Shown here one piece after another: positions 26,600 through 63,758 of a DNA stretch of 64,000 bases. The position numbers and the translations under genes were made by a program. Under the pieces are notes generated by a model. It saw only the letters and a program-made list of their open reading frames with translations, was not told the origin of the DNA and did not search any database. The DNA is from Lama guanicoe. Taxonomy: Eukaryota. Each line of letters begins with the position of its first letter. Position 1 is the stretch's first letter. The DNA lies in NCBI GenBank assembly GCA_013239625.1, contig MU057344.1:3744976-3808975 (forward strand), in the 5' to 3' direction.

Positions 26600-28200
26600 C
26601 AAGTCTTGCACCTAGTTAACAATCTTTAGTGTGCGTTCTCCCGACAGATACGTCTCCTAACTCTGACCAAGCCTTGGGGCTTCCTGACAATCCTCTACAT
26701 GACTATTTCCCACCTCTGATCAGATTGCCAGCCCCTTGCCCCAAAACCTCCCTCTTAGCTGATGACTTCCATTACTCTTTTTTTGAAAACATAGAAGTAA
26801 TCCAAAGAGAATTTTCAGACACTCCCACCTTCATATCTAAGCGTCCAGCAACATCTTTACCCAACTCAGCCTTCCCTCCTGTTACTATGGAAAATGGGTC
26901 CTTGCCCCCACCTGAGGTCAACCCTGACATAAGGGCATTCATCTCGCATACTTTGGTCTACTTGAGGACATCACTCCAACAGTCCTTGCCCCCCACCTCA
27001 TGAAATCATCTATGTATCCTTTCTTCTGGATTTTCTCCATTAGCATGTAACCATTTTTTAAAATCTCCCATCTTAGCGGGGAGGGTATAGTTCAGTGGCA
27101 GAGCGCGTGCTTAGCATGCACGAGGTCTGGGTTCAATCCTCAGTTCCTCCTTTGAATTAATAAATAAATAAAAACCTAATTATCTCCCCATCCCCCCCAA
27201 AAAGATTGAGAAAATCTCCCATCTTAAAACGGAAAAAGCAATCTCTCAACTCCCAGCATTCCCTGTCAATTACCACCCCTTTTCTCTCTTTACTATGGAC
27301 TCAAATTTTGTGTCCCCCAAATTCATAGTTGAAGCCCTAGTCCCATCGAGGTCACTGGTGACATCCCCCTGCTAAGCACTGGGGTCGGGTCTCGCTCCTC
27401 CTCTTCCTGCTTCTGTTAGCATCGGACGCCACAGGTCACTCCCGCCTCCTTGATGACCCTTCTTCCCAGGGAGCCCCCAGCACCTCAGGCTCTCCTGTCT
27501 CTCCTCCCACCTCCCTGGCTGCTCCTTCTGTGTCTCCTTGCTGCTCCTTCCTCCTCCCTGGACTCAAGAAAGAGCCACAGGGCACAGAGCTCCTCTCGCC
27601 TTTACCTGCACTTGACCTTTTGCATGCCCTGGACTCATGCCCTTAAACACGACTCCCCCAGTCTGTGTGTGCAGCCTCACCCTTCCCTGGACTCCTGCAG
27701 TCTCTAGTCTAGAGTGTCAAGCTGACCACCATCACCTCCACAACACCACTCTCACCTCGCACCCTCCTCCCTACACTCAAACCCACAGCCCTCGCCCTCA
27801 CTGTCCCCTCTCCGCCCTTACCCACTCCATCCTCAGCCTCACCCCCACCCTGAGTCCCTTCATCTCCACCCACTTTGGTCTTTACTTTCCTCTAAATTTA
27901 TTCCAACTGCTGGGACCTTGTACTTGCTGTTCCCTCGGCTTTGAACCCTTCCTGGCTTTTCTTGGTTCTGATTTCTTCTCATCCTCCAGAGGCTCTGCCC
28001 ATGGTTACCTAGTGTGTCCTCAGCTCCACCCCCTCCCGGCTACCCTCCATCACATCATCTCACTTCTTTCCTTTGGAGCGTTTAACACAGGCTGTCATTA
28101 TTGGACTTGTTTATTTGTGTACTTGGCTGATGTGTTCCCTTCTCTGTGCAGGGCCCACGGCAGATGCTCAGTAACTATTACTCAAATTGATGAAAACCGG
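26600..28200. mobile_element. Degraded L2-like LINE fragments interrupted by a young SINE
   Basis: Pyrimidine-rich degraded sequence ending in the L2-like tail CAGATGCTCAGTAACTATTACTCAAATTGATG; boundaries rough. Confidence 0.5.
27076..27210 (+). mobile_element. tRNA-derived SINE (camelid vic-1-like) with a 16-bp target-site duplication
   Basis: A box TAGTTCAGTGG, B box GGTTCAATCC, A-rich tail. TSD AAAATCTCCCATCTTA at 27060-27075 and 27211-27226, with a TTTT/AAAA L1-endonuclease-type site. Confidence 0.9.
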
Positions 28201-36000: not shown

Positions 36001-38486
36001 GCCCTGGAGCTAAACCACATGCTTTCAGGGGCAGGAAGTCAGTTACCCACTAACCAGCCATGAACCCCCATGCTCTTCCCCTTAGCCCTTGCCTTTTCCT
36101 CACAGCTGCTAACGGACCCCAAAATTATACATCTGAGGTCAGGATTCAGTAAGTAGGATGCCTTCACAAGTCTCCCCTCACTCCTTACTTAGAGGTCACC
36201 ACTGAAACAGTTAGGATGTCTAAATGGTTTGAGGCTTGAGAGCAAGCATTTGAGGCCAACAAGACCTAACTCTCTGGCCGTGGCCCCCACAGCCCAGCTC
36301 CGTGACCTTCTCCAGCTGAAACAGGAGAATGCCTACCTGACCACCATCACCAAGCAGATCACACCCTACGTCCACTCCATTGCCAAGGTGAAGGAGCGGC
36401 TGGAGCCCAGGTGAGACCAGCGGGTGTTCCAAGGGAGCCAGGACACTTCCAAATGTGTGTGGGGAAAGCGCCACACATTTGGAAGCGCCCCACTCAGGGA
36501 AGTCCGTGGGCCGGGTTGTGAACGTTTAAACAGGGCACCTGGGCAGGGCAGGTGCTGGCCATCTGCAAAAACAGAATGAGTGGGCTGCTCTGAGTTCCCA
36601 CTTCTGGGTGCACAACGACCCCCCTCTCCACACCTTGGGGGTGCAATGAGGGTCCTCAGCGGATCCAGGCAGCAGGACACAGAGGAAAGAGAACTTCCTC
36701 AGTGCACAGTTTAACCTAGTCTAGACAGGAACCTCGACCAGGCTCTCAGCACCACACTTGGGCACTGAAAGGTGCTACAGTGCCAGAGGTTTTTCGGTGG
36801 CAGGTCCTCAATGTGCTGTCTCTCAAGTCTCTGGGCCCCAGGGTGGGCTGGTTGCCCTGGAGGGCCGGCGCAGAGTGGTCAGCCTGCGCTCTCCCTCCGC
36901 CACGCTCCAGGGGACTCCACTTGCCTGGCTCTGGGCAGAGATCTGATTCCTCTATCCGGGTTTCCTCTCTCTCGGCTTGGTGGAGCCCATCCCCCAAGCA
37001 GCCCTTGAGAAAGGAGGGACTTGTTCTGAATAGCACATGTCTGCAATATCTTTATTCCGCCTTCACACTTGACTGATAGTTTTGCTGCACGTTGAATTCC
37101 AGATGGAAATTCTTGATTGGAGATGATTCTCTTCCTTGAGAAGTTTGAAGGCACTCCGATTCTTAATCCTTGCACGGTGACCTACTAATTCTCCGTAGAA
37201 GCTTGTGGAATCTTCTCTGCTCCCAGTGTTCTGAAATTTCACATTGGTGAGGGTCTAGTTCCATCCACTGGATACTGGTGGGCCCTTTCAGTCTGGAAAT
37301 TCATGTCCTTCATTTTGGGCGTATTTCTTTTTGAACTGGTCAGTTGCTTTTCTCCACTTGCGGAATTCTCATTGGACACGGGCCTCCCTGAGCTGGCACT
37401 CTGACTTACCCTCCCCTTCCAGGCCTGTTTTCCATCTCTTTGCTGTTTTTTCCGGGAGATTTCCTCACTTATCTTCTAACTCTTCTATTCATTTCTTCAT
37501 TTTTGAAGAAAACTTCCAAGAGCTCTTTTAAACATTTTAAACTATAGGCATCTTTGTGCCCTCTTCTTGTTACACAGCGTCTTGTTGTTTCACGGACGCC
37601 CCTCGGGGGCTGATAGGTGTCTGCTTTCTCCCCCCCCACCCTAGTGGTGGTGGTTTTTGTTTTGTTTTTTTAATGGAGGGACTGGGGATTGAACCCAGGA
37701 CCTCGTGCGTGCTAAGCACACAGTCTACCACTGAGCTATGTCCCGAACCGCCTCTGCTTTTATTTTTTTTAAGTTTCCTTCTCCCTGAAGTCTATTTCCT
37801 CCAAGTTATGTTTTGTTTGTTTAGGTTTCTATCTTCCATGTTAAAGGCTTTTGTCAGATGGTCAGGAAATCTTTGATTACGTGCTCATGTTAGGAGTTGG
37901 GGCTGGGGTGGGGTTGTGTAGGGCAGGATGGACGCTCTGAGCCCATGGGTGGTGTTTCAGTGTAAGGGATCTGTGTGGTCAGAGTTTTTTATTTTGCTTT
38001 TCTTTTTTTTTTTTCATTTCCTCAATGTCAGTTTTAGATCTCTTCCCGGTTTCCTTCCTGGAAGCATCTGTACGCACACCTGGAGCATCTGTATGCACAC
38101 CTGGTTTTCTGGTTCTCACCTGTGTGCTGTACCCTCCAGAGACTAACGCTGCAGACTTCTGAGGGGTGTGGGGCCAGCATGCTCAGAGGCAGGGATCTTG
38201 ACCTTCATCGTCCTATTTCAATCCCACTCAGTCCTGCAGAGGCAACGGGGCTGCCCATTCCTGAGCCCCCTAAGGATTCTGGTGGGAATTGGCCTCAGCT
38301 TGCTCTGTGCACTTTGAATTCAGGCTTCCCGGGTCTGCTAACTCAGTGACCACTTGTCCAGTTGCTCTCCAGCCTCCAAAATTTTGGTGTTAGCCTTTCC
38401 TGCCCTCAACCTGGAGAGGCTTTTCTTTTACCCCCTCGTTTTGGTCCCTTTACTAGTTTTAGTGAGTTTGGGGAAGAAGGAGAATT

Positions 38487-38517
<31 letters not shown>

Positions 38518-41495
38518 ACAATTGCCACATTAATCCAAAACTGTCAAACCTCCTTTTAAGTGACTATTTTAACATGTCACACTGAGAAGTTCCACTCCTC
38601 ATACCTTCTGCACAAATTCTGATCAATCTTTGTCTATCCAGGACTAGTTACGCTGTTTCCTCCCAAGCTGACATTCAAAGCAGTTTACTCTAGATACTGT
38701 GTGATTCCATTTATAAAACCTCAAAACCAAGCGAACTAACGTCTCATGTTAGCATTTGGGATGGTGATTATCCTGGAGGGCCTCTGGGTGGAGGTGACGT
38801 CCTGTGTGCCCAGACTAAGCCGTGCCCTTATCATTTGTGCCCTTTCCCTTCTGTGTGCTCTGCTTTGTGAGCAGCTGGCTTCCAGTAGTGTGCTCCTGTC
38901 CGCCCACAAGGGGCAACACCTGGGGGAGTCACGTCTCTGTGGGGAAATGGCATCTGTGGTCAGTTTCAGCAACTGGAAAGGCGCTCGGGCTGGAGCCAAG
39001 CTCCTGGAGGTTTGGGGTGAGCAGGGAGGCTGCCTCCAGCCCTCTTCCTGGCACCACTTCCTAGGTGTCTGGAGTTGCCCTCTGCTTCCTCCCCTCCCAC
39101 TGCTGGCCACGCCCCCCGCCCACCAAGAATCCACTCATCAGTGACCTTTCCATCCCTTGGCCTCAGAGGAGCAGCACTGAGGAGCCTAGACCGTCCATCA
39201 CCTTCACCGTGCTCTGCTCTTGCTTCAGAGACCCTCCACACTCCGTTTCCCTCCTGCCTCCCCAGCTGTTCCTTCAGCCCCTTTGGCTTGGCTCTGCCTC
39301 CTTGGCTCAAGGCCCAGATGTCAGTTCTCCCCAGGGCTCAGCCCCAGGCATACTCCTCCCTCTGCACCCTCTCCTTCAGGGGCTTCACCCGGTCTCCTGG
39401 CTTTAAAACCCCTGTGGTGGTGCAGACGACCCCCAGTCCCTGTCCCCAGTACGGACCCACCCAAGCTCCAGACTCATCTCCAAGTGTCCCTTCCTGGGAG
39501 GGGGTGTCTCTGCTTAGACGGGTACCTCAAGTCCTACAATGGCCCCAGGACTCAATTTCCTCCCCTGGAACATGGTCCTCCTGTTTCATCTCAGTAAATG
39601 CACCAGTCACCCAGATGCTCCTGGAAAAAGCCGGGGAGACATCTGGATTCCTTTCCTCACCCCTCTTCCAACCCATCCCCAGATCCCGCTGGCTCCACTG
39701 TCTCACCCACCTGCTTTGTCTCCACTGCAGCCCCCAATCCAAGCCACTGTCGTCAGCCCCAGCCCCGGCCCCTCCAGCACGTCACATAGCCTATTGTGCT
39801 GGGCCCCGATAGCCTTTCCGGGACCCTCTCCACACCCCGGTCACCACGGCCTGTCAGTCCCTGGAGAAGCTGGGCTTGCTCTACTCCCAGCCTCTGCAGG
39901 AAGGGTTCTTGCTCCAGGTGGTTCCACGGATGCTCGTCACTCAGGTCGCAGCTTGAATGTCGACAGGCAGGCCTCCCCAGACCACCCTGGTGAAAGCAGG
40001 CCTCGCTTGCTGTCACCATCCGGCTCCATGTGTCCTTCCCAGCCTTGGCGTGTCTCCGCGACTGGAACGCAGCTTCCGCGGGGCCAGGGCCTGGCCTCCC
40101 CCATCCACTGCCATGGCCCTCGCCCACAGCAAATATCTGAGGCCCAGAGCTCGAGGCAGGCCCTTGAGTGTTAGCACAAGGCTGTGCAGTGAGCTTAGGG
40201 GCACGCGGCGGGCCACCTCTCCCACCGCCCCGGTTCCCAGTAACTGCTGTCTCTCGCCCAGGTTTCAGGCACCCGTGGATGAACAGTCGGACCACCTCCA
40301 AAACACGTATGACGACGGCGTGAATGGCGAGGCCCAGGCCAGGTGGAGCAAGTCTTCCCACAGCAAACAACTTCATCTCAGGGACACACACAACGACAAA
40401 GACAGAGCCCAGCTCTGCGGCCTCGGCAGGGCCTCAGTTTGTAAAACACGGGGTCGGAGGGGCTCTTAATCTACACAGTGCCTTCAAACATGTGACCTGG
40501 TAGATGACACATGTGGCTGATAGACCTGACCCACGTTTTATAACTTGGGGTGGCTGTGTCTGCCGGCCGCCCCGCTCACACCACTGAGCACGCAGGCTGT
40601 CACCCCGCGTCACTCAAACCCCCTTACGTGAGAAAAAGTGACTGAGGGTTATTTATTTGTGTGAGAGCGTTACTATTCACTGGAGCCACAGTGTTTGCCA
40701 AAACACTTGCCAGGGGGAGAGAAGAATGTGCGGTAACAGACATGTCACCGTCACAGGCTCATCTTTCAGTGTTGCACTCTCAGTAAAGTGTTAGTCACGG
40801 GTTGGAGAACAGAGTTGTAGAAAGCCGCAGCTAGGAGAGCCTCGGGGTGCGGGGAGGTCTGCAGCCATAGAGAGCCACAGCGTGCTTGGTGACAGAGCAG
40901 AAACTTGTCCCACCCTCCCAAGCACCTCTTTTAGCCCAGATGCTTCAAGGGAGGGTCGATTCAAAGCACTGTCACCACGAGCTAAGAGACCAAACTGCTG
41001 CTGCTTTGGCAACTGAACATCATCAGAGGGGGGAGGGTATAGCTCAAGCGGTAGAGCACATGCTTAGCATGCACAAGGTCCTGGGTTCAATCCCCAGTAC
41101 CTCCTCTAAAAATAAACCCCCACCAAAAATTTTTTTTAAAAAATTAGAAATGAGATAACACTTTAGGAGACAATGTAGTTCTGGTTCAGAAGATATGCTC
41201 ATCTACCGGTGCCTTCCAGAAGGGCTGGCTGTTCCGAAAGCCCTTGCCCGAGTGGACTTCAGCACTGGGATGCAGCGAGGTGGGGGGAGCAGACAGAAAC
41301 TCACGTTAAGTTTGTTTCTTTAGGAATGATCCAGTAAGTGTCTTGGAAAAGAGAGAGAAGACCTCAGAGCCTAAAGGGAACAGCCGGGCTCTGAGCAGCC
41401 TCACAGATGAGCCTTCACTGAAAAACAAAGATTCTCATAGACCCAAACCAAAAAATGGGGGTGACATCCCCACGCGGAGAGAGCGCCCAGCCTAG
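29850..41495 (+). CDS. RNF207: RING finger protein 207 (RING, B-box, coiled-coil), 634 aa; exons 29850-30040, 30694-30826, 32026-32170, 32266-32347, 32422-32497, 32574-32699, 33106-33152, 33430-33502, 33574-33642, 34073-34141, 34230-34327, 35105-35291, 35460-35645, 35918-35969, 36293-36410, 40262-40342, 41324-41495
   Basis: Exon lengths sum to 1905 nt with one continuous frame. Starts MSGAIFAPLEGP, RING CPLC..CFHHFCAGC..CPLC, B-box CNTCGQPLCARCRDETH, ends GDIPTRRERPA-TAG. Confidence 0.97.
30557..30640. promoter_or_regulatory. Candidate muscle/cardiac enhancer (MEF2 x2, TEAD, ETS) in RNF207 intron 2
   Basis: ATATTTATAG 30557-30566, CTATTTTTAG 30600-30609, TGGAATGT 30618-30625, CAGGAAGTG 30632-30640. 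Confidence 0.55.
37050..37900. mobile_element. Old L1M-like LINE fragment in RNF207 intron 16
   Basis: T-rich degraded sequence (GGGCCCTTTCAGTCTGGAAATTCATGTCCTTCA...) typical of antisense ancient L1; boundaries rough. Confidence 0.55.
37653..37750 (-). mobile_element. tRNA-derived SINE (camelid vic-1-like), antisense to RNF207
   Basis: Reverse complement reads CATAGCTCAGTGGTAGA...GGTCCTGGGTTCAATCCCCAGT plus an A-rich tail. Confidence 0.9.
38491..38516. repeat. (TG)n microsatellite
   Basis: About 13 TG units. Confidence 0.95.
41028..41145 (+). mobile_element. tRNA-derived SINE (camelid vic-1-like) in RNF207 intron 17
   Basis: GGGGAGGGTATAGCTCAAGCGGTAGAGCACATGCTTAGCATGCACAAGGTCCTGGGTTCAATCCCCAGTACCTCC plus an A-rich tail. 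Confidence 0.9.
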
Positions 41496-48700: not shown

Positions 48701-51226
48701 GGGATTAGTTTTATCAAAAGTTGGGGCTTCACGTTAGATGGTGCACTACGTTATTCAGGGCTTAAAGCGAAAGGTCAACGTGTCCTCCATTCAAAATCCA
48801 GAAGCAGAATTCACAAGCAGAGCCTGGCCGTTATAAAGAGCTTAGTGAGGACAGAGGTCTGGGGAAAGTCACTTGGGAGATTAGACCTGAGAAGTGCACC
48901 CACGTCACTGTCCTCAGGCACCCCGTGGGAGCCACCTGTCCCCCCGCCAGAAGGGTAAGTAGGGCACACTGACCTGGCCAAAAGATATTTTCGAGTGTGA
49001 ACTCTATCCAAGAAGAAAGGGCAGCTACTGTATACTCCAGACTGTGATTCAGGAGAAAGGAATCCAAGGACAGACTCTTGGGATTGTTGACTGCCGTGAC
49101 TAAGTATTCGGAATAGTGGAACAGTGACAGGGAGCACATGTACCTATTTAAAACCAAAACGGAAGAGAGGTAAGCTGGGGCAAGGGAACCAACTTAGCCA
49201 GAAGTCAAAGTACAGATTTGGTCTGAACTGTCCCTGAATTCTATGATGAGGTCCTGTTGTCACCTGTCTGAGAGTGGACATCAGGCACCCACATGTAGCA
49301 TCCATCACTCCTTGAGGTTTGCAGAAAGTGGGGTTTTAAAGGGACCACGTTTTTGCATGTCACAGGAGGGGGGAAAAAAACAACAACAACAAAAAAAAAA
49401 AAACATAGGCTAGGAAGGCATTATGGGCCTTCAGCCTTTTTTTAAAAAAAATGACACTACACACAGGAAAACATGAAAGAGGGAAATATCAAAATAAAGT
49501 AGTGATGTATGTCAAATACAAAAATTCAAAAAACTGAAATAATTCTGGCAAAGAAGGATTAGATGGCTCAGAGTACTGATAATAGGAGATAAAGCTTTTT
49601 ACCTTGAAGCCACTGGTTCATATCCAGGTCAGGGACTAGAAGGCTCAAGGGACTGAAATCATAGTGTAGGGAAAAATCCTACACTGGCCGTGGGGGATGC
49701 ACTAGATGTGACCTAATAGAAACGGAAAAGGCCTGTTGAAGACGAGCCAGAGCCTTGCCCCTTCCTGTCACTGAGGACCTGCACCCTCTTCTGGGAAGGG
49801 CTGGTCACATTACTCAATGGGCTGCAGCTGCAGAGCGCCTATGGGGAGGGTGCCAGGGAGACCTGTTTCCACCTGCAGCAGAAGGAACCAATGGGCACAA
49901 GCTGTCAAGGTCCGAGATGTGGGAATCTAGGTGGACGCTAGAGATCTCATTTCCTTAGAACCCTCAATAGCCCCCAGCCAGCCAGCCAGCCAGCCAGCCA
50001 GGGGTGCAGAAACATCCCTCCTGACCCTCTGATCCACCCACCCTCACCTCAAAACTATCATTTCCAAAGCACTCCTTACCAGCCAAAGTGATTCCAAGAA
50101 GACTGGCTAAAACTTAGCAGCACTCCACAGCCAAACACAAAGCCAAGGAAACAGGCTCGGATGGCTATCTGAAACGGACCCAAAAGAAGCTCAGTCACCT
50201 GGCTGTTCTCAGAGCACACATCCCACTTCCTGGGATAAGCAGGCCACTGGCAAGTACGGAGAGCCAATTTGCTCAGAGATTAACAGGGTGAAGCAGGACT
50301 GCCCGGGTTCCGACCCCAAGCCCGCCCCTCTCTGGCTCTGTGGCCTTTAGGAAGTTACTTAACCTCTCTGGACATCGGTTTCCCCATCTACACAACGGGG
50401 GTGGCCAACAGTACCCGCCTCGGAGGATTACCCACGTAAAACACTTAAGAGTAAGCGCTACATAAGTTGCAGCTACCATTACTTATGATTATTGTTATTC
50501 TGGGCTGTGGGAAAACTGCGTAAACCTAGCTTATTGGCCGGATTCTCTCAAGTCCACGCAGCGAATCGGGTCGGGGCACCCGGGATTCTGCGCCCAGCCC
50601 CCTGCACGTAACTGCGGGGCCTTTGACCTCAGACTTGACAGCAGGTAGTTCTCCACACCTTAAATTACATAAAAGAACTCGTGGGCCCGCTCACTCCCCG
50701 CCCCACGCGCATCAGCCGCACATGCTGAATCGCACCAACTGCAGTTTCCCACCCACTCTTCCAGGTAGAGGGGCCCCACGCCCCCCCCAAACTGGAGAGG
50801 AGGGGTTCCTCCTGCCACCTGAACTTGATGCTGCTCAAGAACACGGCCGGGGGAGGCAGCCCCTCTCGCGGGCCGGGCTCTCAGCCGACCCAGACCTCGA
50901 CACCCGGAAGACAGTGCCCACTCCCCGCCCCCGGCCCGCCGACCCTCGCCCTGACCCCCGCCCCGGCCCCGGTCCTCGCCCCGGCCCGGCCCGGCCCGAA
51001 CCTGGTAGCGCGGCGGCCGGTAGAGCAGCAGCAGCAGCGCGTTGAGCCCGGCCACGTAGAGCGCCAGCCCGGTACGGCCCTGCAGGCCGGCGCGCGTGAG
51101 CAGCGGCAGCGCGGGCGCCGAGGCCCCCAGCAGGAAGGTAGCGAGCACCGAGGCGCCCAGCAGGAAGGTGGCGAGGCTGAGGCGCGCCTCGGAGCCCGGC
51201 GGAGCCCGCGCCGCGCAGCCCGCCAT
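45797..51226 (-). CDS. ICMT: Protein-S-isoprenylcysteine O-methyltransferase, 294 aa; exons 51226-51002, 50168-50080, 49143-48974, 48196-47979, 45979-45797
   Basis: 225+89+170+218+183=885 nt, GT-AG. Starts MAGCAARAPPGSEARLSL, contains HTLVTSGVYAWFRHPSYVGWF and RTEEEEISL, ends GLPFIKGVKVEL. Confidence 0.98.
49555..49690 (+). mobile_element. Ancient tRNA-headed SINE relic, LF-SINE-like, in ICMT intron 2 (antisense to ICMT)
   Basis: GGATTAGATGGCTCAGAGTACTGATAATAGGAGATAAAGCTTTTTACCTTGAAGCCACTGGTTCATATCCAG has A/B-box-like ends and aligns by eye to the recalled LF-SINE 5' consensus. Confidence 0.55.
50330..50495. mobile_element. MIR SINE fragment in ICMT intron 1
   Basis: AAGTTACTTAACCTCTCTGGACATCGGTTTCCCCATCT core and ATT-rich tail. 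Confidence 0.8.
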
Positions 51227-63213: not shown

Positions 63214-63758
63214 CTAGGACGCCGAGCCCAGCGAGTCCGAGTGCAGTGTGACGTAGCCCGACGACTCGGAGGGAGAGCTCAAGAAGCTGCTGGTGCTGCC
63301 GCCGCCGCCGCCGCTGCCGCCGCCCGCCGCGCGCCCGCCCCCGGGCTCGCCCCACGACGCACTCAGGCCGGTCCGCAGGGTCTGTGCGTGCGCNNNNNNN
63401 NNNNNNNNNNNNNNNNNNNNNNCAAAGGCGTCGGCAGCAGCGAGGCCGAGGCGCAGCGGGCGCCGGGACCGGGACGGCGGCGCGGGCTGCCGGGGGGCGA
63501 AGTGGGGGTGCGGCGCGGGCCGTCGTCCAGAGCCGGGGGGCGGAGCGACAGTAGGCTCTCTGCCGAGCGACGGCGCGGGCGGAAGGGGGGCGCGTCCTCC
63601 GCGAAGGCCAGCAGGCTGCTGCGGGGCCGGTCGGGCCCGCCGGGCAGCACCAGGGCGGCCAGGTCCTCGCCGGAGCCCCAGCGTGGCAGGAACGTGGGCA
63701 ACTGGACCGCAGCCCACACGTCCGCGTCGTCGTGGGAGAAACGTCGCGTGGGCGGGAC
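63214..63758 (-). CDS. GPR153: Orphan G protein-coupled receptor 153, last coding exon (cytoplasmic tail), gapped
   Basis: Acceptor GACAG|, then [18 protein letters not shown]...[11 protein letters not shown]...[N gap]...[11 protein letters not shown]...[24 protein letters not shown]; synteny with HES3. Confidence 0.92.
63394..63422. other. Assembly gap (29 N) inside the GPR153 last exon
   Basis: Run of N. Confidence 1.

Follow-up and report, generated by a model that had tools for sequence, protein, structure and literature searches.

ICMT carries out the final CAAX-processing step on Ras, Rho and prelamin A, and inhibiting it is being pursued in progeria and in cancers driven by Ras. A sequence-only reading of 64,000 nucleotides of Lama guanicoe DNA (assembly GCA_013239625.1, contig MU057344.1, positions 3,744,976 to 3,808,975; hereafter the window) raised the question of whether the second intron of ICMT carries a 110-nt poison exon whose donor was supplied by an antisense relic of the ancient LF-SINE family, and whether this exon acts as an exapted splicing-NMD switch. 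The gene occupies five coding exons on the minus strand of the window, from 51226 to 45797, with HES3-like and then GPR153-like genes, read by eye, beyond it. A run of N at 63395-63423, within the GC-rich final exon of this GPR153-like gene, marks an assembly gap. Homologues were found for the coding part of ICMT exon 1 (51002-51226, 225 nt), and exon 2 (50080-50168, 89 nt), the upstream partner of the proposed cassette, matches ICMT proteins; the top identity of the window ICMT among 62 protein matches was 87%. Just 5' of exon 2, intron 1 holds a MIR-like relic at about 50330-50500 (minus strand). Exon 1 contains an imperfect 30-nt tandem duplication at about 51175-51115 (minus strand) that yields ATFLLGASVL-ATFLLGASAP-ALPLL and an ICMT of 294 aa. 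This duplication occurs in 0/33 ICMT homologues read, Camelus ferus among them, and may mean that the first membrane segment has grown longer in this lineage, or else that the assembly is in error at this GC-rich sequence.

The proposed cassette stands in the sequence of intron 2 as it had been drawn. On the minus strand, an acceptor (ctattag/G) opens the exon at 49712 and a donor (CAAG/gtaaaa) closes it at 49603, giving 110 nt (49603-49712). Spliced to exon 2, it reads W-S-H-L-V-H-P-P-R-P-V and then TAG at 49681-49679, and a transcript that includes it encodes a 115-aa product. The description of the acceptor as strong was an overstatement: acceptor and polypyrimidine tract (49713-49735) are present, but with 15/20 pyrimidines the site ties with seven other AGs of intron 2 and is exceeded by one that has 16. 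The donor (AAG/GTAAAA, 49597-49605) ranks second of the 56 GT sites in the intron on a crude frequency table. As had been claimed, the stop lies well 5' of the later junctions, at distances of 76, 246 and 464 nt from the three that follow, and it passes the >50-55 nt junction-distance rule at all three, by which included transcripts would be expected to decay. An in-frame restart within the poison exon was rejected, as no ATG follows the last stop in the frame entering exon 3 (48974-49143, 170 nt), the downstream partner. A search of sequencing runs with 49560-49760 found no RNA run among the 24 rows listed; at least half of the 16 words were present in 20 of these rows (14 at 0.56-0.63), and the search was not used as evidence. 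A metagenome scan with a 20-letter motif from the exon gave a single locus (L001), unrelated beyond the motif and set aside as a chance match.

The human gene contains a counterpart that is already annotated. Entry ICMT_chr1_6293703_6294465_6294571_6294946 of Mironov et al. 2023 (PMC10123112, ST2 and ST7), drawn from GENCODE NMD transcripts, describes a 107-nt poison exon at hg19 chr1:6294465-6294571 (GENCODE v35lift37) with its premature stop inside the exon. Statements drawn from this source cover its tables ST2, ST7 and ST8 and, of its 82 ICMT rows, rows 1-32 and 53-82. The human exon resembles that of the window in gene, intron, distance from exon 2 (374 against 367 nt), size (107 against 110 nt), possession of an internal stop and length of the next exon (170 nt in both). 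The downstream intron differs, at 761 nt in human and 459 nt in the window, and orthology is assigned by geometry rather than from the human exon sequence. Within that coverage, the source says nothing on the origin, age or RNA structure of the exon (PMC10123112).

Expression data attached to this entry describe a minority exon whose use accompanies lower ICMT expression. In GTEx its median inclusion (psi) is 0.101, and samples with more inclusion have less ICMT mRNA (psiH-psiL 0.166, delta e_g -0.226, z -7.8), placing it among the 568 of 2754 annotated events that pair higher inclusion with a lower gene level (PMC10123112). Inclusion rises by 0.134 in brain and by 0.123 in cerebellum, and also in kidney, small intestine and pancreas, five of 30 tissue rows in all, and falls in one, uterus; the exon is not classed as tissue-specific (PMC10123112). 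In human brain, steady-state inclusion comes to about 0.23 and is higher without lower ICMT mRNA; more generally, no tissue in these tables pairs raised inclusion with lower ICMT, the effect being NS in 30/30 rows, with blood lacking data (PMC10123112). As included transcripts would decay, steady-state inclusion of ~10% (~23% in brain) would understate the share of transcripts diverted. The tables give no regulator for the poison exon, all 18 ICMT regulator rows referring to exon-3 skipping (PMC10123112). The latter event is a second annotated NMD route of human ICMT, more tightly associated with ICMT level (z -10.8) than the poison exon and credited in those 18 rows with candidate regulators (PMC10123112); human ICMT thus has two adjacent unproductive-splicing events.

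Mouse Icmt likewise has an NMD-stimulating, stop-bearing cassette of 109 nt (chr4:152383594-152383702), reported from dentate gyrus by Zhuravskaya et al. 2024, with an intronic flank PhastCons of 0.585 and an r of 0.47 between gene level and the protective pattern (Table S6, PMC11188260). We equate this table row with the exon of mouse protein record AAH57132.1 on the basis of size and class. In Upf2-null macrophages, ICMT is among the genes with raised PTC-bearing junctions, listed by gene and not by junction (Weischenfeldt et al. 2012, PMC3446288); this signal could stem from exon-3 skipping instead of the poison exon. ICMT is absent from the supplements of PMC6547761 and PMC8361881, and among the 12 files of PMC11188260 that were searched, the long ones possibly incomplete, it appears in only one and not in the CHX-responsive table. 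No junction-level NMD-inhibition result for the poison exon was found in the supplements of these three sources as searched. In PMC10581386, ICMT is named solely as a cerebellar marker.

Protein records extend the exon beyond human and mouse, with truncated products ending in it in four mammals, mouse among them. Of 22 proteins obtained when exon 1 was used to look for short forms of ICMT, one, opossum A0A5F8GST3, enters the poison exon; it matches SHLVHPPR at 8/8 residues, then proceeds in the neighbouring frame (6/9) and ends at the position of a TGA that the window has at 49661-49659. A query with the tail found the exon peptide in two of four matches, including goat A0A8C2Y0W7 (8/10). A cluster listing supplied two 105-aa records that terminate at the same codon as the window, from mouse (AAH57132.1, 7/10) and horseshoe bat (KAF6344694.1, 10/10); 15 members were listed, seven were read and these two carried the peptide. 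The codon position of the TAG is common to the bat, goat and mouse records, and all four species imply the same acceptor frame. For each of three queries tested, the poison-exon locus was the best match across the six frames of the 64 kb. Among 38 cluster representatives, a coarse and therefore weak search, two reach into the exon (opossum and goat), both mammals, and no non-mammalian record does so.

Since opossum and placental records both carry the exon peptide, the exon is likely older than the marsupial-placental split and at least therian in age. The opossum product changes frame inside the exon and still meets a stop, which fits selection for the presence of a stop and not for the peptide sequence. 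The tail itself drifts, with mouse differing from the window at 3/10 residues, and this drift together with a flank PhastCons of just 0.585 argues that the exon is not an ultraconserved element. The truncated product loses the entire Pfam ICMT domain, which spans residues 164-257 of full-length ICMT, and the 105- and 109-aa products matched no Pfam family. Two further records were not counted. In Cebus imitator, P0020, P0023 and P0072 belong to a diverged ICMT-like copy, one model of which (P0020) ends HTPLPPRPKCK after exon 2; this tail resembles a decayed poison-exon peptide and might mark a gene copy or retrocopy that retained the exon, and the record was left out of the support on account of its diverged source. 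A 101-aa Moschus record has a different tail.

The stop had also been placed inside an 8-bp hairpin, and the pairing is as described: 49685-49678 pairs with 49670-49663 around a 7-nt loop. This stem-loop (49663-49685, minus strand) folds at -11.1 kcal/mol, with z -2.69 and 2/200 shuffles as good for a stretch chosen for its fold. It is the sole perfect hairpin of at least 8 bp in intron 2, there being 28 in the 64 kb, or about 0.05 per 110 nt; folding of the poison exon as a whole is mildly better than that of its shuffles (z -1.76, 9/200 as good). Across the hairpin, opossum differs from the window at three residues. One base change accounts for each, in only one minimal way: at 49684 G becomes U, at 49672 in the loop U becomes C, and at 49664 C becomes A. 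In the stem, 49684 pairs with 49664, and the peptide thus implies that a G-C pair has become U-A in opossum. Among 22,208 random non-synonymous triples, 736 leave the stem intact, and in 352 (1.6%) it is a compensatory pair that achieves this; the figure is post hoc, draws on a single species, presupposes minimal change and is blind to silent changes. These comparisons give a hint that the stem around the stop is conserved. Separately, a predicted fold of 49718-49700 (minus strand) draws the acceptor AG into another stem, a weak one that includes three G-U pairs and, if formed, could dampen inclusion of the exon.

Where the exon came from is a harder matter. The donor lies within what the sequence-only reading took to be a tRNA-like SINE head antisense to ICMT, a putative and much decayed element at 49556-49635 of the plus strand. 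The tRNA-like character was not confirmed: ARAGORN calls no gene there, Rfam gives no tRNA match and the expected place has no A box within one mismatch, while a B-box-like 9-mer with one mismatch lies at 49616. Over four scans there was no Rfam match to tRNA or uc_338 at E<=5-10, with matches at chance level only; the uc_338 scan presumes that Rfam 15 includes a uc_338 model. An overlap of uc_338 with the 3' end of LF-SINE has been reported (PMC4233971). Alignment of the relic to the three tRNA-Ala SINE heads of the window lacked significance, 84-116 of 500 shuffles scoring equally well; an nhmmer search of the window detected no further copy, and the putative head folds no better than shuffles (z -0.2). 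The three heads belong to ARAGORN tRNA-Ala(AGC) calls at 27079-27152 (plus), 37675-37746 (minus) and 41033-41106 (plus), which are not tRNA genes but short SINEs that end in A-rich tails. These young elements resemble the camelid Vic-1 type.

What favours an LF-SINE is a match made by eye, in which 49556-49571 fits at 14/16 positions and 49593-49627 at 28/36, or 42/52 overall, against the LF-SINE string quoted in the sequence-only reading and not a database record. The matching positions extend beyond the A and B boxes, and the donor falls where it had been placed relative to that string. A copy of so old a SINE is expected to be decayed. Most LF-SINE relics are reported to be barely detectable (bioRxiv 10.1101/2025.03.14.643233), so that little weight attaches to indirect tests with a negative outcome. 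The supplement of PMC4255032 yielded no LF-SINE sequence. On the by-eye match, we regard the relic as probably LF-SINE kin; that it is another tRNA-derived relic is a lesser possibility, and that it is no mobile element at all is improbable.

The exon could therefore be exactly as described while the relic belongs elsewhere, whether to another ancient tRNA-derived SINE (such as MamSINE1, AmnSINE2 or one with a head of the MIR type, named in part after PMC5753468), to a tRNA-pseudogene remnant or to no mobile element. We accord this a real chance, short of expecting it: the silence of Rfam on uc_338 and tRNA is in keeping with it, A- and B-box letters are common to tRNA-derived heads, and the exon is seen only in therian records (2/38 matches extend, both mammals). 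It has to contend with the agreement of letters outside the boxes in the 42/52 match, and with the small weight that negative tests carry for relics so near the limit of detection. Doubtful, in our view, is the more ambitious proposal that acceptor, hairpin and donor all derive from one internally deleted LF-SINE, with a selected stem of therian age switching brain inclusion and the dose of CAAX methylation.

Similar exons are on record. Bejerano et al. 2006 described 19 LF-SINE-derived exons, PCBP2 included, of which 16 are alternative and 11 carry an early stop (as summarised in PMC9148063). The ICMT exon shares with this class its alternative use, its early stop and the proposed position of an ancient SINE opposite the gene; it differs in that its donor would sit in the tRNA-type head and in having been seen only in therians so far. 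The LF-SINE exons reportedly lie in antisense orientation. ICMT is not known to be among the 19. A second comparison is with the ultraconserved poison exons of SR-protein genes, such as TRA2A exon 2 (PMC10123112), in which inclusion likewise brings a premature stop and decay. The ICMT exon, in contrast, shows moderate conservation and has no regulator listed, and as ICMT is an enzyme and not an RNA-binding protein, direct autoregulation is not expected.

Whether the exon deserves to be called a switch depends on how far its inclusion is controlled. The exon itself is, as proposed, an annotated and significant unproductive event. The switch was borne out to a degree, in that inclusion varies among tissues and is anticorrelated with ICMT level overall. 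Against a strong regulatory switch stand the lack of any tissue in which the expected ICMT drop accompanies raised inclusion, the missing regulator and the moderate conservation. Alternatively, a genuine exon subject to NMD may be no more than tolerated leakage, a cryptic exon of long standing held at ~10% inclusion with no selected role. Such a leak would suit an exon that is not classed as tissue-specific and has no assigned regulator, whose effect on the gene level is modest (delta e_g -0.23), whose flanks are moderately conserved and whose acceptor is unremarkable among the AGs of intron 2. We nevertheless think it unlikely, as opossum, four placental lineages and the window all retain the acceptor frame and a stop, inclusion moves in tissues (up in five and down in one of 30 rows), and the opossum peptide implies a compensatory base pair. 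Least probable by far is that the included isoform serves to make a short membrane peptide from the N-terminus of ICMT (105 aa, or 115 aa in the window), with the stem aiding escape from decay: the truncated product does exist as full-length records and brain inclusion reaches about 0.23, but the opossum frame changes inside the exon and the tail drifts, the product lacks the ICMT domain and the stop obeys the junction-distance rule three times over.

We thus consider it highly probable that intron 2 of ICMT holds a stop-bearing cassette, with placental and marsupial counterparts, that likely trims ICMT through NMD, and whose donor likely derives from an antisense tRNA-type SINE, probably related to LF-SINE. 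Most likely, a donor on the weak side and an unexceptional acceptor lead to inclusion of the exon in a minority of transcripts, in Lama guanicoe presumably as in human; the included stop would expose this minority to junction-dependent decay, and the dose of ICMT would be trimmed accordingly. The stem around the stop may tune how often the exon is included.

The poison exon is real, and is already annotated and quantified in human; the main proposal made for the Lama guanicoe sequence was right. In the open-access literature searched, we found no paper that ties ICMT to LF-SINE, to exonisation or to a characterised poison exon. New here are the therian-wide product records for the exon and the possible compensatory pair, and the value added is an age for the exon that is at least therian, a hint of a conserved stem around its stop and a testable claim of SINE origin. 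Should the LF-SINE origin be true, the exon would be one more case of a class already described (PMC9148063). A native poison exon offers a ready handle on this enzyme, as forced inclusion would lower ICMT and blocked inclusion would raise it. If the structural-switch reading were also true, ICMT would possess a previously undescribed, SINE-derived and structure-controlled handle that could be pushed by antisense oligonucleotides.
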